A DNA stretch of 25,030 bases from Anatilimnocola sp. (GCA_031394445.1 JANNTN010000590.1:1-25030); one strand, 5' to 3'. Counted from the first letter of the stretch, positions 5,539 through 19,510 are shown. Numbers and translations are program-made. Notes: generated by a model from the letters alone, not told the origin.

Positions 5539-6393
5539 CTACCGGCGTGCGAACATCTGGACACGCTTGCCGTTGACTTCGCAAACGTAGAGCGTGCCTT
5601 TGGAATTGACGGCCATGAAGTGGGGCAACAACAAAGTTTCGGGAGTGCCCCAACTGGCGATGATTTTGCCGTCGTTCAGATTGACGTGATAAATCTTGTG
5701 CACGTCGCCTTCGGCGGAAAGCAACTCGTTGCCAACGACGAGGAGGCCGAAGGGATTGCCGAAACCGTCCCAGGTGGCGAGGTGCTTGCCGGCGGTGTCG
5801 AAAACTTGCACGCGCTTGTTACCGCGGTCGCCAACGAAGATGCGGTCTTGCTTGTCGATCGCAAGATCATGAGCGGTGGCGAACTGGCCGTTTTCCTTCC
5901 CCTTCTTGCCCCACTCGGAGACATACGCCCCTTCGGCAGAGAGCTTGGCGATACGGCCATTGCCGCTGTCGGCGACGTACATATTGCCTTGCGAGTCGAA
6001 CACCACGTCGTCGGGGGCGCGAAAGCCGTCTTTGCCGGCGGCCGGTTTGCCTTCGGTGCCGAGCGTAGAGAGCAGGCGGCCTTCACTATTGAACTTGCGT
6101 AGTACATGATTGCCGTTGTCGGTCGTCCAAATGTTCCCATTGCGATCGAGACGCAGTCCGTGGGGCACTTTGAATAGCCCCGTGCCCCAGCCGCGAATGT
6201 ATTTGCCTTCGCTATCAAAAGCGACAATCGGCGGCTCACCGCGATGCAGGACGTAGATATTGTCCTTGGAATCGATATCGACCGCAGACATCGCGCCGAC
6301 TTCGACCTCCGCCGGAAATTTTATAAAGCCGGTGGATGTGTAAGGGTCGGCTGCCAACGCGGCGGCCAGAATCGCGAGGGTGACAGAATTCAT
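5539..6393 (-). CDS. Secreted NHL-repeat beta-propeller protein
   Basis: Signal-like N-terminus MNSVTLAILAAALAA. Repeated NHL-type units: IYVLHRG, GNIWTTDNGNHVLRKF, GNMYVADSGNGRIAKL, RIFVGDRGNKRVQVF, TLYVCEVNGKRVQMF. The start overlaps the stop of the upstream gene (TAATG at 6391-6395). Confidence 0.85.
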   Translation of the reverse strand: MNSVTLAILAAALAADPYTSTGFIKFPAEVEVGAMSAVDIDSKDNIYVLHRGEPPIVAFDSEGKYIRGWGTGLFKVPHGLRLDRNGNIWTTDNGNHVLRKFNSEGRLLSTLGTEGKPAAGKDGFRAPDDVVFDSQGNMYVADSGNGRIAKLSAEGAYVSEWGKKGKENGQFATAHDLAIDKQDRIFVGDRGNKRVQVFDTAGKHLATWDGFGNPFGLLVVGNELLSAEGDVHKIYHVNLNDGKIIASWGTPETLLLPHFMAVNSKGTLYVCEVNGKRVQMFARR

Positions 6394-7514
6394 TATTTGG
6401 GCTCCTTGGGCACATCGATCCAGCGGCGCTCGTCATGAGACTTTAGCACACTGTCGGCAACGACTTGCGAGTTGAGGCCGTCGTAAAAGCTGGGAATGGC
6501 TTCGCGCTGTTCGCAAATCGCGCTGACAAATTCCCACACGAGATCGTAGCGGAAGACGGTAGCCGGTTTGCCTTCGCTGGGATTACGCGGGCTGTCTTGC
6601 GGCTTAAGAAATTCGGCCGGCACATCGACAGGGGCGAGATCCTGGCCCGTTTTGCCGACCATGATTTGATTGGGCATGTGCAGGCGATAGACGGCGGTCC
6701 CTTCGGAGCCGTTAATCTCGGCCCATTCGTGGCCAAAGCCGTCGAAGCCGTAGCCCTTGGCGAGCGTGGTCCCTTCCCAGACTCCGGTCGCGCCGCTCGC
6801 GAATTCGCCGATCAAGCTCGACCAATCATCGACTTCGCTGGGAGCGCACTCCTTGCCGTCCACCGTTTTTGTGCGCGGGGCAAAGCGGGCCGTCGCTCCG
6901 CAGATGCTCTTGATCGGTCCCATCAGGTCCATCGCAAAATCGATACGGTGAATCGTCATATCGAACAGATCCCCCGCGCCAGCCGTATTTTTATATTGAC
7001 GCCAGCCCCAACTGGTTTCCGGCCAATCGAGAAATCGCTGGCTGCGAAAATGACGTAAGTCGCCAAGTGCTCCGCTGGTTGCCAGATGCCGCATGTAACG
7101 CATCGACGGGGCGAAGCGATACGTAAACGCCGTCATGTGAACGACCTTGGCATCGCGGCACGCGTGGTACATGTCGCGCACTTCGCCGGCGTTCAGGCCC
7201 AGCGGCTTTTCGCACATCACATGCTTGCCGTGCTTGGCCGCGGCGAGCGTGATAGGCCGGTGCGTAAAATTCGGTGTGGCGATGATCACGGCGTCAATGT
7301 TGGGATCGGCGCAGATGGTTTCGTAGTCGGTCGTGATGTTGTCGCAGGACCAATCGGTGCGGCGCTTTTCGGCCAGCTCGCGGCTGTTGTCGCAAACGCC
7401 GCCCAAGCGCGCGCGGGGATCGATGCGGATCGCGGGGACGTGGTGATAATCGCTGACCGCGCCGGCACCAATGATGGCGATGCGGACAGGGTTATCGACT
7501 GAGTGCTTCGGCAT
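6393..7514 (-). CDS. Gfo/Idh/MocA family NAD(P)-dependent oxidoreductase
   Basis: Rossmann N-terminus VRIAIIGAGAVSDYHHVPA. EKP motif in HVMCEKPLG. ATG at 7514 is preferred over the TTG at 7556 given in the ORF track. Forms an operon with the NHL gene through a 1-nt overlap. Confidence 0.85.
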   Translation of the reverse strand: MPKHSVDNPVRIAIIGAGAVSDYHHVPAIRIDPRARLGGVCDNSRELAEKRRTDWSCDNITTDYETICADPNIDAVIIATPNFTHRPITLAAAKHGKHVMCEKPLGLNAGEVRDMYHACRDAKVVHMTAFTYRFAPSMRYMRHLATSGALGDLRHFRSQRFLDWPETSWGWRQYKNTAGAGDLFDMTIHRIDFAMDLMGPIKSICGATARFAPRTKTVDGKECAPSEVDDWSSLIGEFASGATGVWEGTTLAKGYGFDGFGHEWAEINGSEGTAVYRLHMPNQIMVGKTGQDLAPVDVPAEFLKPQDSPRNPSEGKPATVFRYDLVWEFVSAICEQREAIPSFYDGLNSQVVADSVLKSHDERRWIDVPKEPK

Positions 7515-8767: not shown

Positions 8768-9136
8768 TTACGCCTGAATCTCTTGGGCGGGCGTGGCCAG
8801 AACTGACTCGGCTGATTCCGAGTTGGCAGCGGTCGGCGAAATGCGAACGTAACCGAGGCCGCGAACGACTTCGAGAATTTCGCTGCAGGTGGGGAACATG
8901 CGGCCGTTGGCGCGTTTGTAGGATTCGAGGGCCTGCATGAACAGGATCTCCTCGTCGTTGTATTCTCGCTCGCAGGTGGTGGGGTCGATCTGGCGGCGGC
9001 GCTGAACCTTTTCGCGGCGTTCTTGGCCACGGCGCTCGACGGCAATGGGTTTGCTGTCCTTTCTGCGGTCATCTGCGCGGCGATCCGACTTGGCACGCCG
9101 TTCGAGATCAGCTTCAACCGTTTGATTCTTAGCCAT
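8768..9136 (-). CDS. hypothetical small protein with a highly basic Arg/Asp/Glu-rich N-terminus and a compact C-terminal domain
   Basis: ATG at 9136 (MAKNQTVEADLERR...). The longer track ORF from 9280 adds a low-quality N-terminal extension. The C-terminal part is EILFMQALESYKRANGRMFPTCSEILEVVRGLGY. No family assigned. Confidence 0.5.
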   Translation of the reverse strand: MAKNQTVEADLERRAKSDRRADDRRKDSKPIAVERRGQERREKVQRRRQIDPTTCEREYNDEEILFMQALESYKRANGRMFPTCSEILEVVRGLGYVRISPTAANSESAESVLATPAQEIQA

Positions 9137-9346
9137 GTGCCACCTTGGGAATGCTCGTAAGGGGAAGGGATTGGCGAGACTTTGCCGGCGACGAAAGGTT
9201 TCATCGTCTCGCCGGTCAGCGAATTTCGACCGGTTGGGTAAAATGTACGGCTGTGCTAAAGAGTAGGGATAAACGGGCACTTTGACGGCGTTCTGATTAC
9301 GGTCGTGCCGGTTATGACGCCCCGATTCCTGACCACTGCCCCTCTT

Positions 9347-10570
9347 TCACTCGGCCACTACCTCAAAACGCCGAACATCCAGCACGTTCCGCCCCGATTT
9401 TTGGTAAGGCCGTGGTTCCGGCTGAGCGAAGCCGTTGAGATCGACGGAGCGGGCCCGCAACTCGTATTTGCCGGGGGCGAGGTTTTTGGCAGTGAGCGAC
9501 CAACCCACGACACTATAGGACAGCGGCCACGACTTGGGTTTTCCATTTTGAGGATCGAAGCCAAAAACGTCCGCGGCTCGCACATCTTCTGGAAGCGAGT
9601 TGGCCCAATTGGTCGGCGCGGCGTCGAGAGTTGCCGAGGTCCATTCGGCCGATTGCCAGGCGGGATCGTCGTCGCGCAAATTGCCCATGCCGGCGGGTCG
9701 AATCCAGCATTCGACGCGTTCCAAACCCGACAGGCCACACATGACGTTGCCGGTGATCCTGAGAGGCTGCTCGGCTTTGACCTTCTCGGGAACATTGTCC
9801 AAGTAGGCGGCCGTCTTCATGCGCGATTCGGGATCGTTGTTTTGCTCCGCATAGGTGTCGTTGATTTGGTAGTCGCTGGTTAGCACGATGTTTTGCAGCC
9901 ACTTGATGTTTTTGAAGCCGTAAGCCCACGGCACGACCATGCGAACGGGGCCGCCGCGCTGGAGCGGGAGCGGCTCGCCGTTGAGCCGAAAGGCGAGAAA
10001 TGGTGGCGGCTCGCCGGGCGGGCTTTCCATCACTTGCGTGTAGCTGAGCGAGGAGCGAAACATGGGGCCAGTTCCGCGGTGGCCCCAGTAATAGATGCGG
10101 CGGATGTCGGCGAATTTTCCGGTAAGTGCCAGAACATCGCGGAGCAGCACACCTTCCCACAATCCCTGGCCCAGCGGCTGCGAAATATTTAGGCACTGCA
10201 TCCCCTTGAGCACGCGAACGGTTTTCTTTTTTGCCAATTCGTGCAAGGTGTCTAATGTGATCGGAGTGCCTGCGGCGGCGGTGCGGGCCTCCGGAACGAT
10301 AGCCTTGGCCTCGCCGGCGATATCGAGTTGCCAGGTTTCGGGCGTGAGCTTCGCCTCGGCCAGTTGCGCCTCGCTCAGCGTCGATGGATGCGGCTTGGCC
10401 CGGCTGACATCGCGAAAGTCCTTGGCGTTCGTCAACAGTGGGCGGGCGGGTGCTGGCGGATCTGGATTTGGTCCTGCTTGTGCAGACACGGAACGCGTTT
10501 TGACCGCGCTGAGCGCCCCGATGGCGACGCCAACACCTGTTTTTAGCGCGGTCCGACGATTAAGGGTCAT
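9347..10570 (-). CDS. TAT-exported molybdopterin-dependent oxidoreductase (sulfite-oxidase fold)
   Basis: Twin-arginine signal MTLNRRTALKTGVGVAIGAL. Candidate Mo-ligand Cys in KGMQCLNISQPLGQGLWEGVLLRDVL. GGPVRMVVPWAYGFKNIKWL is typical of the Oxidored_molyb domain. The C-terminal part resembles a beta-sandwich dimerisation domain. Confidence 0.75.
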   Translation of the reverse strand: MTLNRRTALKTGVGVAIGALSAVKTRSVSAQAGPNPDPPAPARPLLTNAKDFRDVSRAKPHPSTLSEAQLAEAKLTPETWQLDIAGEAKAIVPEARTAAAGTPITLDTLHELAKKKTVRVLKGMQCLNISQPLGQGLWEGVLLRDVLALTGKFADIRRIYYWGHRGTGPMFRSSLSYTQVMESPPGEPPPFLAFRLNGEPLPLQRGGPVRMVVPWAYGFKNIKWLQNIVLTSDYQINDTYAEQNNDPESRMKTAAYLDNVPEKVKAEQPLRITGNVMCGLSGLERVECWIRPAGMGNLRDDDPAWQSAEWTSATLDAAPTNWANSLPEDVRAADVFGFDPQNGKPKSWPLSYSVVGWSLTAKNLAPGKYELRARSVDLNGFAQPEPRPYQKSGRNVLDVRRFEVVAE

Positions 10571-10743
10571 GCGAATGTTCCAGGCGGTGAGGGGGCGTTT
10601 ACTGGGCGGGACAGGAAGAAAAGTAGGGGAAACTCTTGCTTCTGCCGCGTGGCCGGTTATTTTAATCGCTTAAGCAGGTATTCCCACAGTTTTCCTGAAC
10701 CCATCGAAGCGAAGGCTTCGTGGAAGATAACGCGGAGGATAAC

Positions 10744-11115
10744 ATGGAGTACAAGGTCAAACTAGCAAGCCTTCCCGCGAGAGTGGCGTTTAGTGAACGG
10801 CTACACGAGCGTTGTAGTTACAACGCGGAGCGTGGCGAGTTGAGCTTTCGCGGGTTCATGACCAAGTGCGCGTACGACGAGATTTCCGCGCTCTCTGACG
10901 ACTTGGATTATCACCGGGCCATTGAACAGTTGTTTGTGATGACCTCGGCGGAGATCGCGCCGCCGCCGCGAAGTTTTCCCCTGGCGGCAGCGCTGGCGAT
11001 GGCGGTAGCGGCCGTGGTTTTGGTCGCGGCGATTATTATTGGTGTGTGGCGGCACGGGAGCAGCGAGCCACCGGTCAGCGCTCCGGCGAATGCCACAGTC
11101 TCGACGGGATCGTAG
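10744..11115 (+). CDS. hypothetical membrane-anchored protein
   Basis: ATG at 10744 has GGAGGA at 10734-10739. A hydrophobic helix (LAAALAMAVAAVVLVAAIIIGVW) lies near the C-terminus. The GTG at 10720 in the track overlaps a hairpin and is less likely to be the start. Confidence 0.5.
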   Translation: MEYKVKLASLPARVAFSERLHERCSYNAERGELSFRGFMTKCAYDEISALSDDLDYHRAIEQLFVMTSAEIAPPPRSFPLAAALAMAVAAVVLVAAIIIGVWRHGSSEPPVSAPANATVSTGS

Positions 11116-11749: not shown

Positions 11750-13177
11750 TTACGCAAATAAATCGCGGACCGCCCTGCCCTTTCCATCCTCGGTGGCATA
11801 GAAGGGCCGGCGTTCAACATCAAACGCGGTGGCGGGATTGATCCCCATCGCGGTGAACATGGTAGCGTGCAGGTCCATCACGGAAACGGGATTTTTCACT
11901 GCGACGAAGGGCCGTTCGGCTGCGGTTTCGCCGTAGAGCAGGCCGCGTTTCATGCCGCCGCCGAAGAGCAGCACCGATGAACCGCCGGTGAAGTGACGGT
12001 GCAGGCCGTAGTGCTTCAGTTCTTGGAGCGTATCGACTTTGAAGGTCGTCTGGTCCTTGGCTTCGGAGCCCGGGACGCCTTCGATAATCATGTCGCGGCT
12101 GAATTCGCTGGCGAGGACGACGAGCGTGCGATCGAGGAGGCCGCGGGCTTCCAGGTCGAGGATGAGTTGTGCGATCGGCCGGTCGATTTCTTTGTGCAGC
12201 CGATCGACCGTTTCGTGGCCGCTGGCGTGAGTGTCCCAGTGGATGAACGGGATGTATTCGGTCGTGACTTCGATGTAACGCGCCCCGGCTTCGACGAGGC
12301 GGCGTGCCAGCAGGCACCCCTGACCGAAACGGCCAGTGTTGTATTTCTCAAAACTCTCCTTAGGCTCCAGCGTGATGTCGAAAGCGTCACGCTCCTTGGC
12401 TTCGAGCAAGCGCTGGGCATTATCGAGCGAGCGGAGCATGGACTCTTGCTGGTGATCGCTCATGTATTCGCGATGCGGCGAGCGATCAACGAGTTGCTTG
12501 AAGAACTTGTATCGATTCGCAAAGCGGCCAGGCTGCATTCCCGGCGGCGGGCGGACCGCTTTGGCGGCCTCGTCGGGATACGGCAAATTCATCGGGCCAA
12601 ATTCGCTGCCGAAAAAGCCGGCGGTGGTGAACGCCTTGATCTCTTCGTTCTCGCCGATACCTTCCAGCCGTTGGCCGACATTGATGAACGGCGGTATCAC
12701 CGGATTTTTCGGCCCCAGCACGCGGGCCATCCACGCGCCGACATGCGGGCAGGCGACGGTCTGCGGCGGCACGTATCCCGTGTGCCAATGATACTGATGC
12801 CGCGAGTGCAAAATGTGCCCCAGGTCTGGCAGCACATGCGAGCGAACAAGCGTCGCCCGGTCCATGACGCTCGCGATGTTTTCCAGGCCCGACGCGATCT
12901 TGATGTTATCGACAGCCGTGTTGATCGCCGGAAACGTGCTCGCCACCTGCTCCACCGGCAGCCCCACCTCAAACGGCATGTACTTCTTCGGGTCAAGATT
13001 ATCCGGTGCAGCCATGCCGCCCGCCATCCACAGCACAATCACCGAATCCGCCGTCGGTTTGGGCTGCACAATCTTCCCGCCCGCTTCGTTAGCCGCAATC
13101 AAACGCGGCTCGCCCGCCATCCACGCAGCGGTGGAGGCGGCAGCGATCGATTTCAAGTATTCGCGGCGGGAGAGCAT
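11750..13177 (-). CDS. DUF1501 domain protein (sulfatase-fold, TAT signal), the usual downstream partner of PSCyt/DUF1549/DUF1553 proteins
   Basis: N-terminus MLSRREYLKSIAAASTAAWMAG. The product is about 475 aa. Motifs VLWMAGGMA, HWDTH and VVLASEFSR are typical of the family. Confidence 0.85.
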   Translation of the reverse strand: MLSRREYLKSIAAASTAAWMAGEPRLIAANEAGGKIVQPKPTADSVIVLWMAGGMAAPDNLDPKKYMPFEVGLPVEQVASTFPAINTAVDNIKIASGLENIASVMDRATLVRSHVLPDLGHILHSRHQYHWHTGYVPPQTVACPHVGAWMARVLGPKNPVIPPFINVGQRLEGIGENEEIKAFTTAGFFGSEFGPMNLPYPDEAAKAVRPPPGMQPGRFANRYKFFKQLVDRSPHREYMSDHQQESMLRSLDNAQRLLEAKERDAFDITLEPKESFEKYNTGRFGQGCLLARRLVEAGARYIEVTTEYIPFIHWDTHASGHETVDRLHKEIDRPIAQLILDLEARGLLDRTLVVLASEFSRDMIIEGVPGSEAKDQTTFKVDTLQELKHYGLHRHFTGGSSVLLFGGGMKRGLLYGETAAERPFVAVKNPVSVMDLHATMFTAMGINPATAFDVERRPFYATEDGKGRAVRDLFA

Positions 13178-13261
13178 TTCAGTTCAACATTCCGGGTTCA
13201 AAGTTCAAGATTCTGCATTCAGTTTCCGAGATGGGGGGCGGAAAGTCTAGTTGGAGGGTGG

Positions 13262-13279
13262 AATGGTGAGCTCACCATT
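13262..13279. repeat. Perfect 18-nt palindrome aatggtgagctcaccatt followed by a T-rich run
   Basis: Read directly from the sequence. It lies 85-102 nt upstream of the DUF1501 start codon, and ttcattttttc follows on the plus strand. Confidence 0.6.
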
Positions 13280-13347
13280 TTCATTTTTTCTACTACTTTT
13301 GGGTATGAGGGGTGGTGCTAAGTCGTTGGTGTGTAAGGGGCAAGTGT

Positions 13348-13395
13348 GGTGAGTGGTTGGTGAGCTTTTGGCGCTTTGTGGTGAGCTTTGGTGAG
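13348..13395 (+). repeat. GGTGAG-rich short-repeat tract (4 copies)
   Basis: GGTGAG occurs at 13348, 13359, 13380 and 13390, plus one copy inside the palindrome at 13265. Similar GTGAG tracts occur at 8617-8630 and 11723-11746. Confidence 0.6.
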
Positions 13396-13632
13396 TGTTC
13401 GGGTGCGTTGATGAAGTAGAGCGACTGCATGATGGGCGCGCAGCTTGGGCCTGGTTGGCGGAAAGCTTCGTGAATCTGTCGAGAGGCCGGGCCTCTATTA
13501 TCTCCATTGCAATTTCGCGAAAAAACCGGACGGAAAAATGGCGAATTGGCGCGGAATTTCGGAAATTTCTTGGGGGTGCCGGAACCAAGGAGGGGACCAA
13601 GAAAACACGAACGGACGGCTGTCGACAATCGC

Positions 13633-16374
13633 TCAGCGACTTGCCCCATCCGCAAAGGCGTCGATGTCCAGTTTTCCTGAGAGCAAGAAACGCAAGAAGC
13701 TTAGGTTCTTGTTCCGGCAAGTCTGAGCGATGCTGAGTAATAAGAGGTAGTCTTGAAGCCCTCTTTCGCTGAACGATGCCTGGATGATTTTCCGGCGGGA
13801 GGCGAAGGGCTTAATGGCGTTCTCCGCGTTGTTGTTGTTCCAGGGAATGCCGTCGTGATCCAGAAAGACGAATAATTTGTCCTGATACTTCAGCATCCGT
13901 TTCTGGCAGTTCTGTGCCACTCCCGACCCGAAAGCCTGCGCCGACAGATAGCTGAAAAAGCCAGCAACGTCCTCCTTATGCTTGTTGAGGTAATACTTCT
14001 TGAGGCCAAACCTGTCGATCGTGTCAATGACGGGCTTGAGGACCGCCACCAATCGATTAGCAATCTGCTTTAGTTCGTCGTCAAACGGGCTGTGGAAGAT
14101 GTCGTCATTGATGTCTCGCATCAAGTGAATGAGGCATTTCTGTTGCGGGCATTTGAGGGCATCGTAAACGGCATAGAAGTCCGAGACGAGGACACCGGTG
14201 AACTCGTCAAGCATTTCTTCCAGAATGGTCCCTTCCCGCGTCGGGGTGTACACGTAAACAACCTCTTCAAGGTTGGTAAAGGTCCAAACATAACCGGAGT
14301 GTCCCTTGACGACGCCCTTGGTTTCGTCGGCGTGAATTAGCGATCCCCGCCGAAGTTTGTCCTTCAGCCGTTGGTAGGTAGTCCGGTGTTGTTTCGCAAC
14401 CACGGGTGTGATCTGGGAGAGAACCGTGCGCTCAAAGGAGAAACCGAAGAGGTCGTTGAGACTCTGGGCAATGTCCCGCCCCGACTGACGAAGGGAAACG
14501 TGGTGATAGATTGCCCAGTTGCACAGATTCCTGCCCAGATGAAATCGTGCCTCGAGGTAGCCTGGGGCCAAGAGGGGCTTGCGGCACTGCAAGCACCTGT
14601 AGCGCGCGGAGCGGTAGTTGACAATCCACCGCTTAACGCCGGACGTGGTGAACTTCAAGTCGGCCACGACCTTACAGCACCGGCCTTTTTTTTCATTGCA
14701 GATATCTGACCCCGCACAATCTGGGCAGACCGTTGGCCCGTCAAACTCAACATCTTGGTTCGGTTTGAGGCTTTTCTTGCCGGCTTGTTTTTTCCGGCGC
14801 AGACTCGCTCGTACTGACGGCGATGTGCGAAAATAGACTTTTTCTCGCTGGTAGTCCGAATAAGCGCGCTTGTTAATTTCCATCAGTTCCGGGCAGAAGA
14901 ACTTGTTGTTGCGAAAATGACCACCTTCCAACGAATCAAGGTCCGTTGCGGCACCAACCATTGGTCCATTACCTTCCGTTTTACTTGCGGCACCATCGCA
15001 GACTGAGAGGACGAACTCCATCACGCGCCGGAGCGCCAGGCAGTCTTCCAGGTTGTAGCGAAGCAAATGCTTTTTTAAGGTTTCGTTTCTGCTTGCTTCC
15101 CAGGCCAGCCGCCAGGCCAGGCTTTGGATGCCCGAAGCGTTGGTTGCGGTCCAGGTCGCTCCCAGGAAACGTCCGATGTCTTTGAGCCCGTTTGAGCGGG
15201 TTGGGAAGTAAATGCGTGAGTAGATAGCACCCAGCACGTTGCACGAGCGGGCGCGGATGTGGTCGATAGCAGCCGCTCCCTGCTCTTCGGATAGTCGGCG
15301 CATGCGGTCGAGGAAGCGCAACTCGTACTGGCCGTAATGGTAGAGCGTGAAATCTTGGAAGCTGTTGATGACTTGGCTACAGGCGTCCCAAATCGCTTTT
15401 TCCTGAGTTCGGTCGTCAGCCCAGAAGGAATGGGGCGTCGTACAGTCGCCCTCCACGGCGACAAGGCCAATGAGATAATCGAAGTCTCGGTCGGGGACGC
15501 CCTCGATATCGAGGTAGAGGGCAACGGAGGAGCGCGGAACCGTCGGGCTGTCCAGTACATAAACCTTCTTGTCGCGGATGGCGACGGCCTGGAGGGCGAG
15601 GTCGTGTTTGCGGGCCTTTTCTGGTTTTCGCTTACCGCGCCGGCCGGGCCGGTAGGTGTAGGCGAACTGAGTGACCGTGGTGATGCCACGGCTCCTTTGC
15701 TTCTCGATTTCCTTATCCGACAGGCCACGCAACAAGCTCAGGTCGTCAGTCTGCTCCGCCAGATGCTGGCAATCGGCCCGGAACTCACAAATGTTGCAGT
15801 GCGGGTTTAGTCTCACGCGCGGCGCTGCTGCGTCCTTGGCCTGGACATCCTGAATCTTTGCCACCAATTTCCGCACGTCACCGACCAGTGGCTCGATTTT
15901 GCATTTGAGCACTCTAAAGCCGGTTCCATGAATGATCTTGCCAATGGTTGGCAACACGCCCTGAACCGAGGACAAAGCGATCGCGTTGAAAGCGAGGAGC
16001 AGCTTGTCAAACCGCGAGACTTTCTCATTCAGCGTGAAAAGAACCGGGCTATAAGCGGCACCACCACGATGAGCCGTCGTTTTCATCAATTCCAGGGCCT
16101 GGATCTGTGAAGAAATTCCATTGGCCGCGGCATTGGCGTTGATGATGACTTGGGGCCGGCACTTGAGAGTCATCTCTAACGAAGGTGGGCTCTGTACTAC
16201 GTCGTGCTCACGATACTTGGCCAGGAACGTCTCCAGAGCCTGCCGCAAATAGGCACGTTCCAGGTCATGCTGGATCGTCTCAATTTCCGCTGGTTGTCCT
16301 TGAGCACCGGATGCGCGTAGAAACGCTTTGCGATCGCAGTGAAGGAAGTTGACGAAGATGTCGTTGGTGACCAC
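13633..16374 (-). CDS. Fusion protein: TM0106/Cas4-like RecB-family nuclease module + RNase-H-fold 3'-5' exonuclease-like domain + IS66-family zinc-finger/DDE transposase
   Basis: One 913-codon ORF with a GTG start and no upstream ATG/GTG/TTG before the in-frame stop. N-terminal part: FLHCDRKAFL plus NPHCNICEFRADC (Cas4-type Cys set), LSLLRGLSDKEIEKQRSRGITTVTQFA, YLDIEGVP, LYHYGQYELRFL, RYNLEDCLAL. C-terminal part: CPDCAG...RYRCLQCRK (IS66-type zinc finger), IHADETKG, GYVWTF, VLVSDFYAVYD, QKCLIHLMRDI, WNNNNAENAIKPFASRRK. Confidence 0.75.
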   Translation of the reverse strand: MVTNDIFVNFLHCDRKAFLRASGAQGQPAEIETIQHDLERAYLRQALETFLAKYREHDVVQSPPSLEMTLKCRPQVIINANAAANGISSQIQALELMKTTAHRGGAAYSPVLFTLNEKVSRFDKLLLAFNAIALSSVQGVLPTIGKIIHGTGFRVLKCKIEPLVGDVRKLVAKIQDVQAKDAAAPRVRLNPHCNICEFRADCQHLAEQTDDLSLLRGLSDKEIEKQRSRGITTVTQFAYTYRPGRRGKRKPEKARKHDLALQAVAIRDKKVYVLDSPTVPRSSVALYLDIEGVPDRDFDYLIGLVAVEGDCTTPHSFWADDRTQEKAIWDACSQVINSFQDFTLYHYGQYELRFLDRMRRLSEEQGAAAIDHIRARSCNVLGAIYSRIYFPTRSNGLKDIGRFLGATWTATNASGIQSLAWRLAWEASRNETLKKHLLRYNLEDCLALRRVMEFVLSVCDGAASKTEGNGPMVGAATDLDSLEGGHFRNNKFFCPELMEINKRAYSDYQREKVYFRTSPSVRASLRRKKQAGKKSLKPNQDVEFDGPTVCPDCAGSDICNEKKGRCCKVVADLKFTTSGVKRWIVNYRSARYRCLQCRKPLLAPGYLEARFHLGRNLCNWAIYHHVSLRQSGRDIAQSLNDLFGFSFERTVLSQITPVVAKQHRTTYQRLKDKLRRGSLIHADETKGVVKGHSGYVWTFTNLEEVVYVYTPTREGTILEEMLDEFTGVLVSDFYAVYDALKCPQQKCLIHLMRDINDDIFHSPFDDELKQIANRLVAVLKPVIDTIDRFGLKKYYLNKHKEDVAGFFSYLSAQAFGSGVAQNCQKRMLKYQDKLFVFLDHDGIPWNNNNAENAIKPFASRRKIIQASFSERGLQDYLLLLSIAQTCRNKNLSFLRFLLSGKLDIDAFADGASR

Positions 16375-16653
16375 AAGATTTGAAATCCAAAAAAAGTGGA
16401 CGAGAAAATCTATTATGGCCTTTCGCTGACGCAGTCGCCCACGGCGGATGGGCGTTGAATGGATGGTAGAGTGGCTGCGAGTTGCATGCTCCGGACCTTT
16501 GGCTCGCTGTTGTTAACCGATTTCGCTTTCTTCGTCGTGTTCTGGCAAGAATTCCACGCCGTCGTAGATTTCGGCGAGGGGGAGTTCGATGCCGATTTCA
16601 GGCAAGCGTCTTTGCGTTGATGGCACGTCCGGGGGCCTAAAGACGCGGGCACA

Positions 16654-16772
16654 AGCCCGGCTGAAGCCGGCTGGTTGTTGTGATGGGGGATAAATCGTGG
16701 TTGATCGTAACGGCCGCACCACACCCCACCAGCTAAAGCTGGTGTCTGACAGGGGAGCCGGCTGAAGCCGGC
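16654..16772. repeat. Three short hairpins sharing a GC-TNAA-GC apex
   Basis: Hairpins are ccggc-tgaa-gccgg (16657-16670), caccagc-taaa-gctggtg (16727-16744) and gccggc-tgaa-gccggc (16757-16772). They lie directly downstream of the DUF1553 stop codon. Confidence 0.65.
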
Positions 16773-16798
16773 AGCCCGCCCATTCTCTAGTATTGCAT

Positions 16799-19402
16799 TC
16801 ACCGCACCAGTTGAAATTCGGGCAGCATGATGAGGGACCAGAGGAGGTCTTGGAGGGATTCGCTGGTGGGAGTGGGGCTGAGGAGGGTTGTAGCGGCGGA
16901 GAGTTCGTCAGTGGTGGGTGGACGAGAGAGGGCGGTGAGGTAGAGACGTTGGATGAGGGAGGCGGTGGTTTCGCCGGGGGCGGGCTGCCATTTGGCGGTA
17001 CTTTTTTCGATCGTGGTGGCGAGAGTTTCTCCGTTGGCGAGGCTGATGGCTTCGAGGGTGGTGAGTTCGCTGGGGCGCATACTGACGATTTGGTCGCGAT
17101 TGGGGCGGCCGAGGGCACGCATCAGGTCGTTGCTCTTGAGCAGCGAGGCGCGGACCATGCGGATGGGGCCGGAGGAGCCTTGGTGAAGGAGTGAGGGGAG
17201 AGTATCGCCGACGCGGGCGGTCCAAGCAGGGATGGGAGTGATGAAGGTGGCGGGTTGCCATTCGATCGTGGAGTCGGCCGCTTTGGCGGCGCGACGTTTG
17301 GCTTTGGCGGCCTTGGCGGTTGCGGAGGAGACGGGAGTGGAAGATTTCTCGCCCCTCGCTGACGCGTCGGGTTGTTGTGTGGAGTCCCTCGCTGACGCGT
17401 CGGGTTGGTTTGCAGGTGGAGCGGGGAAGCGGCCGCGGGCATCGGGGAGAGTGGTGGTCCATTCCCAGTCCGAATCGGTGGCGATGGTCTGTTCGGTGCC
17501 GTCGGTGAGTTTGATGGCGGCGGCGAAGATGAGGCCGGCGGCGTTGGGAGTGTTGCCAGTGTTTTTGGCAACGATGAGAATTTCGTTATCACCGGCTTTC
17601 AATTGGGCATCGAGCGAAACGAGTTCGACGGTTTCCCAGTTGTCGTCGTTGCTCACGAGTTGGCCGTTGACGAATAGCCGGTATTCGTTGTCGCAGGTGA
17701 TGACGGCGACGGAGCGGGCGGGGGCGGTGGGAAGCTTAAATTGGCGGCGGAAGGAAAGGGATTGGTTGGCGGGGGCGGAAGTGGAGGCGTCGGACCAGAT
17801 CCATTGGGCGGAAAACTCCTGCGCCTGCGGCTGCGGGTTAAACGAGGAGATTGGCCGGCCGGAGGCCCACCCCACGTGGGCGCGGATGACTTGGGCGTCA
17901 GTTTTGGTGGGGGCGGCGTCGGTCAGTTGCCAGACGGTATCGACAAGCTGCTCCGCGGTCATTCGGCGGGCGTGAGGTCCGCGAAAGACATACGCGTCGT
18001 TATCGGGCTCGTCGTTCATCGACGGCGTTTGAGCCCGGTAGATGTCGGAAGTGGCGATGAGCGCGATAGTGTGCTTGAGGTCGTAGCCGTGAGCCGCGAA
18101 ATCAGCCGCGAGCCAATCGAGCAGGTCGCTGCTCCAGGGCTCGGTGTGCATGGCGTCGACCGGATGCACGATGCCGTGCCCCATCAGGCGATGCCACAGA
18201 CGATTTACGATAGTTCGCGTGAAGCGGCCGTTTTCCGGGTGCGTCATTAATCCCGCAAGCTGCTTCAACCGCTCTGGCTGCGGCGCCTCGGCGTCAATCT
18301 GGCCCAATTCAGGAAAAATCCATGCGGCTTGTGCATTCGCGCCCGTCGGTTTATCGCAGCGATGAATCGCCAACGGCTGCGTCGCATAAATTGCGGCCAG
18401 CCCATACGCCTCGTTCAGCTTCCAACGATCGATGAAGCTGTCGTGGCACGACGCACACTTCATGTTGATCCCCAAAAACGCCTGCGAGATGTTTTGGGCG
18501 AATTGGACTTCGATTGTCTGGCTGGCGTTAACCGTGCCGCGCCATTTGATGCCTTGAGAAAAACCTTCGGAGTCGGCGGTCGGCGAAATCAGTTCGCGAA
18601 CCATCTGGTCGTACGGTTTGTTATCGACGAGCGAGCGGTAGAGCCAACTCGTGATTTGCTTGCGGCCACCGGTGATGAAGCCTGTGCCGGCGTAATCGTT
18701 TCGCAGTAAGTCGTTCCAAAACGTGAGCCAGTGCTCGGCATAGGCGATGTCGTCGGCGAGCAGTTCGTGGACGAGTGCGTCGCGCTTGCCGCTGCTTGGA
18801 TCAACACCAAACTTCTCCACCCGCTCAGCCGGCGGCAATAGGCCGGTCAGATCGAGCGAGAGCCGACGAACAAGCGCCGCATCGCTGGCCGAAGCGGGGC
18901 GAACAATTTTCTGTTGGGCAAAATACGCATCGACCAAGCGGTCGATCGGATTCGTTCGTTCAGCGACCACCGGCGGCAGTTCGACCTGTCGCGGCTTGAG
19001 CGGCGGCTCATACGCCGGCGGCTTCAGGGCAAAGCCTTCTTGCCACGGCAGGCCGCCATCAATCCAATTTTTCAGTAGCGCAACTTCCTTCTCACTAAGC
19101 CGTTGACCTTCCGGCGGCATTTGTTCGTCTTTATCGCGCGACAGCACACGCCGCATCAATTCACTCTTCGCACTATTGCCGACGGACACCGCCACCCCCC
19201 CCTCCCCACCCGCGACCAAAGCCGCGCGGGTATTCATCGAGTAGCTCCCCTTTTTGGTGTCCCCCGTGTGGCATTGGCCGCACTGTTTGCGAAGGATCGG
19301 CACGATATCGTGGGCAAAATCGATCGGTTCGGCGGCGAACGCGGCAGATGCGAGGCAGACGACACCAATTGCGGCGGCGAGGCGATGGGGAGAGGATGGC
19401 AT
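16799..19402 (-). CDS. Planctomycete cytochrome-c (PSCyt) / DUF1549 / DUF1553 protein with an inserted beta-sandwich domain
   Basis: Signal-like MPSSPHRLAAAIGVVCLASAAFA, starting from the ATG at 19402; the track start at 19465 is an alternative. Heme motif CGQCH with QMPP. DUF1549-like NPIDRLVDAYF and LIRRLSLDLTG-type string. DUF1553-like MKCASCHDSFIDRW, IVNRLWHRLMG and RPNRDQIVSMRPSELTTLEAISLANG. Confidence 0.85.
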   Translation of the reverse strand: MPSSPHRLAAAIGVVCLASAAFAAEPIDFAHDIVPILRKQCGQCHTGDTKKGSYSMNTRAALVAGGEGGVAVSVGNSAKSELMRRVLSRDKDEQMPPEGQRLSEKEVALLKNWIDGGLPWQEGFALKPPAYEPPLKPRQVELPPVVAERTNPIDRLVDAYFAQQKIVRPASASDAALVRRLSLDLTGLLPPAERVEKFGVDPSSGKRDALVHELLADDIAYAEHWLTFWNDLLRNDYAGTGFITGGRKQITSWLYRSLVDNKPYDQMVRELISPTADSEGFSQGIKWRGTVNASQTIEVQFAQNISQAFLGINMKCASCHDSFIDRWKLNEAYGLAAIYATQPLAIHRCDKPTGANAQAAWIFPELGQIDAEAPQPERLKQLAGLMTHPENGRFTRTIVNRLWHRLMGHGIVHPVDAMHTEPWSSDLLDWLAADFAAHGYDLKHTIALIATSDIYRAQTPSMNDEPDNDAYVFRGPHARRMTAEQLVDTVWQLTDAAPTKTDAQVIRAHVGWASGRPISSFNPQPQAQEFSAQWIWSDASTSAPANQSLSFRRQFKLPTAPARSVAVITCDNEYRLFVNGQLVSNDDNWETVELVSLDAQLKAGDNEILIVAKNTGNTPNAAGLIFAAAIKLTDGTEQTIATDSDWEWTTTLPDARGRFPAPPANQPDASARDSTQQPDASARGEKSSTPVSSATAKAAKAKRRAAKAADSTIEWQPATFITPIPAWTARVGDTLPSLLHQGSSGPIRMVRASLLKSNDLMRALGRPNRDQIVSMRPSELTTLEAISLANGETLATTIEKSTAKWQPAPGETTASLIQRLYLTALSRPPTTDELSAATTLLSPTPTSESLQDLLWSLIMLPEFQLVR
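17353..17407. repeat. Tandem duplication (period 33 nt) of a 22-nt unit ccctcgctgacgcgtcgggttg inside the DUF1553 CDS
   Basis: Copies at 17353-17374 and 17386-17407 are identical, and each contains the palindrome gacgcgtc. They encode ...QPDASARD...QPDASARG... in frame. Confidence 0.85.
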
Positions 19403-19510
19403 TATCGGTTGGCAAAGTGAGGGCGTGGCAGGATTCAATGTCGTCAACCGCCGCGTCGGGATCAAGGCGCTGTTTCAGTCCGCCAGCCGCAATATATTCG
19501 CGACGATTGC

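Follow-up and report, generated by a model that had tools for sequence, protein, structure and literature searches.

IS66 is among the most widespread families of insertion sequences (IS), and its mechanism is among the least understood, in particular the need for TnpA and TnpB, the treatment of the second strand and that of flanking DNA. Canonical IS66 elements are bounded by terminal inverted repeats (IRs) of about 14-30 bp with GTA- or GTG-type starts. Within the family, elements of the ISBst12 group consist of a single open reading frame (ORF) with imperfect terminal IRs and 8-bp direct repeats (PMC12898284). Here we describe a gene in a 25,030-nucleotide stretch of DNA from Anatilimnocola sp. 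(GCA_031394445.1 JANNTN010000590.1:1-25030; the whole stretch is called the window below). Its product joins a TM0106-type module, made up of a Cas4-like iron-sulphur (Fe-S) domain and an exonuclease, to an IS66-type DDE transposase. This layout had been proposed in an original prediction made from the sequence alone, and we find that it is real: both parts lie in one polypeptide. The family to which the protein belongs is best called a large, uncharacterised sub-lineage of the IS66 transposase superfamily, in which an exonuclease-bearing N-terminus replaces the usual one.

Results

One polypeptide holds a TM0106-type module and an IS66-type transposase

Positions 13633..16374 of the window (minus strand) form one unbroken ORF of 913 codons with a GTG start. 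The motifs by which the two halves had been recognised are all present in its translation and in the same order: FLHCDRK (amino acids (aa) 10-16), CNICEFRADC (193-202), DIE (289-291), HYGQYE (346-351), YNLED (440-444), CPDC (550-553), CLQC (594-597), ADET (682-685), SDFYAVYD (731-738), CLIHLMRD (747-754) and NNNNAENAIKPF (846-857). The TIGR03491 model (TM0106 RecB-like putative nuclease) covered aa 6-454 (profile positions 5-461/462) with 214 bits at a curated cutoff of 97.45, which makes the fusion protein also a TIGR03491 member by model score, and NF033517 (IS66 transposase) covered aa 530-897 with 197 bits at a curated cutoff of 180. Pfam RNase_H_2 (PF13482) matched aa 286-453 (4e-24) and Pfam DDE_Tnp_IS66 (PF03050) matched aa 635-874 (3e-33, 116 bits versus 23); the Pfam zf-IS66 model gave no match to the window protein at E<=1. 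The single uninterrupted frame containing both halves, as originally described, is thus upheld by the ORF listing and by profiles above their curated cutoffs, which also set the domain borders.

An AlphaFold2 model was built from an alignment of 80 sequences (mean predicted local distance difference test (pLDDT) score 84). It consisted of well-folded blocks with low-confidence linkers at about aa 248-253, 464-490 and 529-538. When the model was compared with the PDB using Foldseek, the best matches of the C-terminal half were ISCth4 DDE transposase complexes (E 8e-8), and the N-terminal half matched Cas4 (8d3l, 4r5q, 4ic1), the Dna2 nuclease, SSO0001 and a DnaQ domain (8h18). The predicted structure independently gives Cas4/Dna2-like, DnaQ-like and DDE transposase folds, in agreement with the proposed domains. 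A PDB sequence search with the N-terminal half alone returned nothing, and a profile was required for the alignment with Cas4.

On this basis the protein can be divided, from its N-terminus and on the minus strand, as follows. Residues 1-205 (15760..16374) form a Cas4-like Fe-S domain, predicted from the alignments, the 8d3l profile match, Foldseek and substitution rates to be a pseudonuclease and DNA-end-binding module. Residues 206-283 (15526..15759) hold a helix-hairpin-helix (HhH)-like segment (DDLSLLRG...GITTVTQ) and, after it, a basic linker modelled with low confidence. A PolB/DnaQ-like 3'-5' exonuclease (RNase_H_2) with an intact DEDDy set occupies aa 284-460 (14995..15525), where the Pfam and 8h18 matches fall, and an inter-module linker occupies aa 461-540 (14755..14994). 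The C-terminal half starts with a CxxC...CxxC zinc finger and helical DNA-binding region of IS66 type (aa 541-676; 14347..14754), and ends with the IS66 DDE catalytic core and its CxQQKCxxHxxRD motif (aa 677-913; 13633..14346). The TM0106-type module stands where canonical TnpC has its own N-terminus, and this part of the earlier description also holds.

Exonuclease and DDE residues are conserved, and the Cas4-like domain is a probable pseudonuclease

Conservation was read from alignments of 26 and 80 family members with 33-77% identity. In both alignments the Fe-S ligands C13, C193, C196 and C202 and the DEDDy residues D289, E291, E351, Y440 and D444 were invariant or nearly so, the DDE triad (D683, D732, E851) was invariant, and the CxQQKCxxHxxRD motif was conserved as well. 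Zinc-finger residues C594 and C597 were invariant among the 80 sequences and C550 and C553 were at least 90% conserved; the model shows a beta-ribbon (558-594) and helices (604-676) in this region. Within the HhH-like segment S213, L214, G230 and Q236 were invariant, with model helices at 220-228 and 234-238. The inter-module linker (aa 461-540) was covered by no known family among the Pfam and NCBIfam models, including those for TM0106 and IS66. It carries a motif specific to the fusion family, AY(S/F)DYQR(E/D)KV..R (aa 504-516, approximately 14827-14865), in which Y508 and Q509 are invariant and which may be an inter-module interface or an extra DNA-binding element.

The N-terminal-domain profile aligned to the type I-C Cas4 structure 8d3l (E 1.8e-4). 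In this alignment the Cas4 sequence 'ICDVVEF' stood opposite the family's 'idalerv', with Gln92 of the window protein at the position of the motif-II Asp, and 'PVEYK' stood opposite 'PiLFi', which is P110-V-L-F-T114 in the window protein. Leucines were found in place of the Cas4 Q-motif in the fusion family. Canonical, non-fused TM0106 proteins, for which we took comparators from plasmids, read ADFL, YEVIDTK and QLAFY in the motif columns, where the window protein reads IQAL, YSPVLFT and LLLAFN. ExK and QxxxY are replaced throughout the fusion family (PVLFT, LLLAFN), and since the canonical proteins retain their motifs, it is only in the IS66-fused branch that (D/E)xK and QxxxY have been lost. 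Because these catalytic motifs are lost, the Cas4/RecB-like domain is very probably an Fe-S pseudonuclease and not a nuclease, so that the nuclease role first assigned to it is not supported. The analogy drawn earlier with TnsA and TnsB, which requires an active PD-(D/E)xK partner, loses its basis too, because these residues are missing in the whole fusion family. Judged by its residues, the DEDDy exonuclease would be the only credible additional catalytic activity in the protein.

The ratio of non-synonymous to synonymous substitution rates (dN/dS) was approximately 0.16 for the whole protein, and purifying selection was seen on every module. By domain, dN/dS was 0.15-0.28 for the Cas4-like domain, 0.07-0.11 for the exonuclease and 0.06-0.12 for the DDE domain; the latter two are more strongly constrained than the Cas4-like domain. 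Between the window and its relative L160 (L numbers denote loci), dS was 0.31 in the zinc-finger/helix-turn-helix region and approximately 1.0-1.3 elsewhere. Such unevenness along the gene was present in other relatives too, and hints at recombination between family members.

The fusion family is large and carries generic labels

A search of 5.8 billion proteins yielded 904 matches; among the best 120 of these, nearly all were ~910 aa long, with 99-100% query coverage, 41-77% identity and both Pfam domains. Full-length fusion homologues of ~910 aa number more than 100 and come from independent assemblies, and the identical protein was separately assembled from a Logan run. Neither sequencing nor assembly error accounts for the fusion. 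Among 1.8 billion representatives, the N-terminal module matched 3,320 clusters at E<1e-3 and 697 at E<1e-30, and its nearest relatives were all IS66-fused or were contig-truncated versions of the fusion. Matches of ~450 aa that looked like 'standalone' N-terminal modules proved to be contig-truncated fusion fragments, and matches of odd length (integrase, AAA_30, Transposase_29), considered as alternative architectures, were read-throughs.

A scan of one genome per species gave 60 loci with the fusion gene. Their hosts include Planctomycetota, Cyanobacteria (Nostoc, Fortiea, Pseudanabaena), Bacteroidota, Burkholderia, Kuenenia, Nitrospirales, Verrucomicrobiota, Cloacimonadota, Desulfobacterota, Elusimicrobiota and others, at least 10 phyla overall, and full-length copies are also found on two cyanobacterial plasmids. 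By these numbers the layout is not rare, and members already stand in databases under generic labels. These labels are inconsistent ('IS66 family transposase' at NCBI, 'TM0106 family RecB-like putative nuclease' on a RefSeq plasmid, 'predicted RecB family nuclease' at IMG), and because pipelines label it in this way, the family is invisible in censuses of IS and of nucleases. No member examined had an ISfinder-type element name attached. Full-text literature searches found no paper that describes the layout, as had been supposed. The sole trace is a table row in PMC3469429, in which four Solibacter usitatus 'transposase IS66' genes are given with pfam03050 and COG2251, without comment in that table.

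Three canonical TM0106 proteins, encoded on plasmids of Pseudomonas luteola, Sphingomonas changnyeongensis and Aminobacter (L165-L167), are ~1,110-1,136 aa long and consist of nuclease, exonuclease and superfamily 1 (SF1) helicase. In two of the three plasmids (Sphingomonas and Aminobacter) the gene adjoins a divergent WYL-domain regulator, an arrangement that looks like an uncharacterised defence or repair module.

The window copy splits a pair of host genes

The fusion gene lies between a host gene for a DUF1501 protein (11750..13177, minus strand; PF07394 6e-69), which forms the downstream border of the insertion site, and a host PSCyt1/PSCyt2(DUF1549)/PSD1(DUF1553) gene (16799..19465, minus strand), which forms the upstream border; both were assigned by Pfam and orthologues. 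Scanning metagenomes with the DUF1501 protein gave 80 orthologous loci. In 50 of them a PSCyt-type gene ends 18-360 bp before DUF1501, with 55 and 46 bp between the genes in the two closest (87% and 86% amino-acid identity, respectively), versus 3,621 bp in the window. Similarity to these empty sites ends at the PSCyt stop codon and restarts at the DUF1501 start, and GC content is 0.53-0.56 across the insert versus 0.59-0.62 in the flanks. The window copy is a lineage-specific insertion of ~3.57 kb that splits a normally adjacent host gene pair, and the fusion gene is its only long ORF.

The 8-mer TGCATTCA occurs exactly twice in the window, at 13214..13221 and at 16794..16801, where it overlaps the PSCyt stop codon. 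The two copies are a candidate target-site duplication (TSD) and bracket 3,572 bp (13222..16793), the candidate inserted element, which consists of the ORF, a 419-bp 5' arm and a 411-bp 3' arm. Excising these 3,572 bp restores a 41-bp spacer, like the spacers of the relatives. The element boundaries were inferred from the 8-bp repeat; the closest orthologous spacers are too diverged for a base-precise empty-site junction. An 8-bp direct repeat is also found with ISDge4 of the single-ORF ISBst12 group, and is of the length that IS66-family elements make (PMC12898284).

Neither arm contains remnants of tnpA, tnpB or tnpC by tblastn (for tnpA and tnpB even at E<=5), and tblastn found no tnpA or tnpB homologue in the window as a whole. 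The arms have no IS66-type ends and no likeness to the IRs of the related elements L005, L006 and L042 described below, and they match nothing else; the insertion has no Rfam RNA, and a scan of it for promoters and terminators gave a background level. Just 3' of the ORF stop lies the motif GTTCGT(C/G) with a degenerate second copy (13606..13630, minus strand), which emerged from the clade comparison. It occurs six times within +3 to +32 of the stop in five clade members (the window, L160, L156, L001 and L002), where 0.07 would be expected per 600 nt, and has no inverted partner upstream. This motif may be a putative protein-binding site or a one-sided element end. Another candidate, the terminal motif GAGA[A]TGGG of the window, was rejected as an element end, being absent from 13 relatives.

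The arms have some further features. A GC-rich palindrome, CCGGCTGAAGCCGG, is present twice in the 5' arm (16657-16670 and 16758-16771) and nowhere else in the window; the copies resemble hairpins of repetitive extragenic palindromic (REP) type, one of them with a terminator-like score on the plus strand. In the 5' arm there is also an open stretch (16513-16600, minus strand) ending in ...IELPLAEIYDGVEFLPEHDEESEIG*, which may be left over from the C-terminal part of a small gene brought in with the insertion. The 3' arm has a low-complexity run at 13330-13400 with GGTGAG(C/T)-type repeats (ggtgagtggttggtgagcttttggcgctttgtggtgagctttggtgagtg).

Some relatives lie inside canonical IS66 elements

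Three independent element types were found in which the fusion gene is enclosed by IS66 IRs. The first is a 5,560-bp element at L006 (5697-11256), with a second copy at L035 in the same metagenome-assembled genome (MAG), in which the fusion gene is convergent with a canonical tnpC-tnpB-tnpA set. Its perfect 21-bp IR, GTACGCGCCCGGCGGATCACG, is found at the two termini only (21/21). The two copies are 99.9% identical and the TSD differs for each; the fusion gene has moved together with a canonical IS66 element at least once. The second element, at L042 (4530-9667; 5,138 bp; IR 14/16; TSD GTTGAATC), has tnpA, tnpB, tnpC and the fusion gene on one strand, and the fusion ORF fills the gap between the tnpC stop and the right IR with only tens of bp to spare. 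The third, at L005 (5126-8635; 3,510 bp; IR 17/20; TSD GCCCGTTG), holds the fusion gene, tnpA and a C-terminally truncated tnpB, and neither a canonical tnpC nor any other DDE transposase is present in this element. The IRs of the three types are mutually related (GTACGCGCCCGGCGG, GTACGC[CG]TCCGG and GTA[CG]CTGTCCGG), and the 8-bp duplications are perfect or near-perfect. As three independent element types with related IRs contain it, the tnpC-distal end of canonical IS66 elements is a recurrent location of the fusion gene, in either orientation. The absence of accessory genes that the original prediction described is therefore true of the window and fails in these three relatives, where tnpA and tnpB accompany the fusion gene inside IS66 IRs. 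At L035, tnpC of the element is broken by a ~1.5-kb insertion with a 13-bp duplication (9519-11037), and the L006 copy is inserted in an IS1595-family transposase gene; the mobile elements here are thus heavily nested.

The nested cases fit two readings: either the fusion protein uses IS66-type ends, or its gene is cargo or a parasite of such elements. As a hitchhiker or accessory, the protein would recognise IS66-type ends by means of its IS66 DNA-binding region; it would then assist or modulate transposition by TnpABC, for instance through trimming or processing of intermediates, or its gene would parasitise such elements by settling at their tnpC-distal end, and the solo copies would be stranded remnants or recent escapes. 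The three independent elements, the constant tnpC-distal position and the relatedness of the IRs speak for this. The association is limited to about 4 of ~55 distinct loci, however, the window has neither tnpA, tnpB or tnpC nor an IS66-type end, and several solo copies sit between housekeeping genes. Moreover, the DDE triad is invariant, and such a triad would be dispensable in an inhibitor or in a protein with an accessory role only. All in all we consider this reading unlikely.

Most copies are solo, often decayed and without IS ends

Over approximately 50 loci we found no conserved neighbour gene, save for chance DUF1501/PSCyt paralogues and for IS66 genes in three to four loci. Exact-seed IR searches of the window and ~37 loci found nothing bracketing the ORF except at L006; this method also missed the imperfect IRs of L005, which were recovered later by a sensitive scan of ~50 loci for imperfect 20-nt IRs beside 8-bp direct repeats. 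IRs at the ORF extremities themselves (-120..+90 against -90..+120) were at z-scores of ~0 in 32 members. Most solo copies are without IS ends. Among the 60 loci, about one third are ~12 internal fragments and ~10 frameshifted copies, as is typical of the turnover of mobile elements, and additional fragments lie close to some intact copies. Multiple copies are known as two in one MAG and, according to the table in PMC3469429, four genes in S. usitatus. Fusion proteins from hosts of different phyla share up to 71% amino-acid identity, and this indicates recent horizontal movement. The family was absent from viral and phage collections (PHROGs, viral contigs, phage records), and PADLOC matched no defence model beyond weak Cas4 matches (E~2e-3) restricted to aa 122-203. 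This genomic pattern fits a horizontally mobile, often-decaying gene rather than a conserved host function, and it departs from that of a textbook IS, whose ends can be recognised.

Two local observations concern individual relatives. One identical protein (P0073) is present on 12 metagenome contigs, which are uninformative on mobility because their context is the same in all. For 10 of these contigs (L061-L070), all seven with a retrieved downstream edge end ~346-348 bp past the fusion stop, and upstream they assemble for kilobases, which suggests a repeat or polymorphism boundary just downstream of the fusion gene. At L047 an inverted 1,053-bp duplicate of the fusion 5' region lies 160 bp past the stop (5548-6600 and 8924-9975; 99.7% identical). 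Its outer junctions have no TSD and no IS-like termini, and we regard it as a local rearrangement rather than a mobility event.

The single-copy state of most members and the lack of conserved non-coding ends are also what would be seen if the fusion were a domesticated protein, an alternative raised in the original prediction, spread by ordinary horizontal transfer and serving in the cell, in plasmid maintenance or in defence and repair, with its IS66 half as a DNA-targeting or DNA-joining module for the exonuclease. Further points in favour of this are the strong purifying selection on all modules, the defence-like context of canonical TM0106 helicases beside WYL regulators on plasmids, and toxin-antitoxin genes near some copies. 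Such a role is nevertheless improbable in view of the missing synteny over ~50 loci, the PADLOC result and the absence from phage and viral collections. The window copy is moreover a lineage-specific 3.57-kb insertion that holds nothing else, about a third of the loci are fragments or frameshifted and the phyletic spread is patchy, and there are both copies inside IS66 elements and 71% identity across phyla.

Discussion

The explanation that we favour, and in which our confidence is evenly poised, is that a compact mobile unit has the fusion protein as its recombinase, and that an end-trimming module is built into this protein. The N-terminal half of a TM0106-type helicase-nuclease would have taken the place of the usual coiled-coil N-terminus of TnpC, and the unit itself would be little more than the protein's own gene. 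The C-terminal half would bind DNA, carry out 3'-OH strand transfer with its DDE site and cut the target with an 8-bp stagger; this stagger is proposed because it is seen in IS66 relatives and because a candidate 8-bp duplication flanks the window insertion. The Fe-S pseudonuclease would grip a single-stranded or frayed DNA end and feed its 3' tail to the exonuclease, and the DEDDy exonuclease would then trim overhangs or flanking DNA, either ahead of strand transfer or after it. In this way trimming would make up for the help that canonical IS66 elements receive from TnpA and TnpB.

A number of findings weigh against a self-contained unit of this kind. The 8-mer shared by the two junction zones would arise by chance with P~0.045, so the candidate TSD could be a chance repeat. 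No convincing terminal IRs surround the window copy in exact-seed searches or in searches at 14/20 sensitivity, and next to the candidate TSD there is only a weak gapped IR (P~0.12), which relatives do not share. The sensitive scan for IRs and TSDs was positive only in the three elements that also carry tnpA and tnpB. Of these, L006/L035 and L042 contain a canonical TnpC that could have moved them, and the truncated tnpB of L005 means that this element may be a defective derivative. Across contexts, sequence conserved within the window clade extends beyond the ORF by no more than 17 bp on the upstream side and by 8-27 bp on the downstream side. Most genomes have a single copy, and the copy at L163 is placed between a pafA-like (Pup-ligase) gene and recX, with spacers of 98 and 25 bp, and has no direct or inverted repeats around it.

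Several of these findings would be accommodated if the gene were an ORF-only selfish element with no sequence-defined inverted repeats, the ends being captured, trimmed and integrated in cis by the protein, with a preference for lodging in IS66 elements. The pseudonuclease would hold ends in the neighbourhood of the gene for trimming by the DEDDy exonuclease, and integration with an 8-bp stagger would fall to the DDE site; the preference for canonical IS66 elements would come from the IS66-type DNA-binding region and make the gene a transposon hyperparasite. Such a mechanism would explain why only the ORF is conserved, why the arms are variable and unrelated, why IR and TSD signatures are scarce, and why there are three nested IS66 cases. 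We nonetheless put forward IR-independent mobility as a long shot. That two neighbouring genes were merged by error or in a chimera, or that the fusion is an inactive relic, is scarcely credible: the window does come from a metagenome-type contig and some relatives from Nanopore MAGs are frameshifted, but more than 100 homologues and the Logan assembly repeat the same length and domain order, the linker has its own invariant motif, the window protein has every residue that is invariant in the family, and the nearest N-terminal relatives among 1.8 billion representatives are all IS66-fused or contig-truncated fusions.

A recombinase that trims its own ends would be of interest for the IS66 family at large. 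The lineage is large, numbering hundreds of clusters at 50% identity from at least 10 phyla, and can be seen as a natural experiment that points to end processing as the missing IS66 function, while the fusion offers a single-polypeptide system open to purification and testing. It also provides a case in which a Cas4-fold domain has turned into a predicted pseudonuclease inside a recombinase, and it presents the TM0106 module as a portable cassette that has either a helicase or a transposase as its partner. If true, ORF-only mobility or IS66 hyperparasitism would be a new transposition strategy, and IR-independent integration would be the transposase-world counterpart of the CRISPR 'trimmer-integrase'.

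Comparison with known systems

The closest known relatives are IS66 transposases. The C-terminal ~385 aa of the fusion pass the NCBIfam IS66 equivalog and DDE_Tnp_IS66 models and contain the zinc finger and the DDE triad, the window has a candidate 8-bp duplication, and some relatives lie inside bona fide IS66 IR and TSD boundaries. Like the ISBst12 group, the window gene is a single ORF without tnpA or tnpB. The fusion differs in being only ~22-27% identical to canonical TnpC, and in the exchange of the N-terminal coiled coil of TnpC for a 460-aa Fe-S/exonuclease module that doubles the size of the protein. It differs further in the absence of GTAAGCG/GTA-type inverted repeats around the window copy and most solo copies, and in being mostly single-copy. 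At the level of the element, with no tnpA/tnpB and no IRs, the window locus falls outside IS66.

With canonical TM0106 proteins (TIGR03491/COG2251) the fusion has in common the order of Cas4-like Fe-S domain, HhH segment and PF13482 exonuclease, as well as the cysteine cluster and the exonuclease motifs. The canonical proteins keep the motif II D, the motif III (D/E)xK and QxxxY, all of which are lost in the fusion branch; they have an AAA_11/AAA_12 SF1 helicase of Dna2/NAM7 type, or nothing, where the fusion has the IS66 transposase, and sequence identity to the fusion is only 22-29%.

Tn7, too, pairs a PD-(D/E)xK-fold domain (TnsA) with a DDE transposase (TnsB). TnsA cleaves the 5' ends as an active endonuclease, whereas the fusion lacks the (D/E)xK residues and its extra predicted activity is that of a 3'-5' exonuclease. 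Inactivated nuclease folds that serve as DNA-handling modules are known from RecC and from the Fe-S 'iron staple' domain of AddB. Compared by description only, the fusion resembles these in a RecB/Cas4-fold domain that would be kept for DNA-end binding or strand guidance, with conserved Fe-S ligands; RecC and AddB belong to helicase-nuclease repair complexes and not to a transposase.

Finally, CRISPR adaptation (Cas4-Cas1, Cas1-Cas2/DnaQ) likewise joins an integrase to a Cas4-fold Fe-S domain and/or a DnaQ-like 3'-5' exonuclease, and the best N-terminal Foldseek matches were Cas4 in Cas4-Cas1-Cas2 complexes, together with a Cas-associated DnaQ domain. In the fusion the integrase is a DDE transposase and not Cas1, the Cas4-like domain is catalytically degenerate, and the Cas4 model TIGR00372 scored 12.5 bits against a cutoff of 65, in the Cys-cluster region only. 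No cas gene or CRISPR array was present among the characterised window genes, no dedicated CRISPR scan of the window having been made. The likeness to the 'trimmer-integrase', a concept put forward in bioRxiv 10.1101/2023.01.23.522648, is a functional analogy only, and as such it is the nearest functional parallel to a protein that would trim DNA ends with one domain and integrate them with another.

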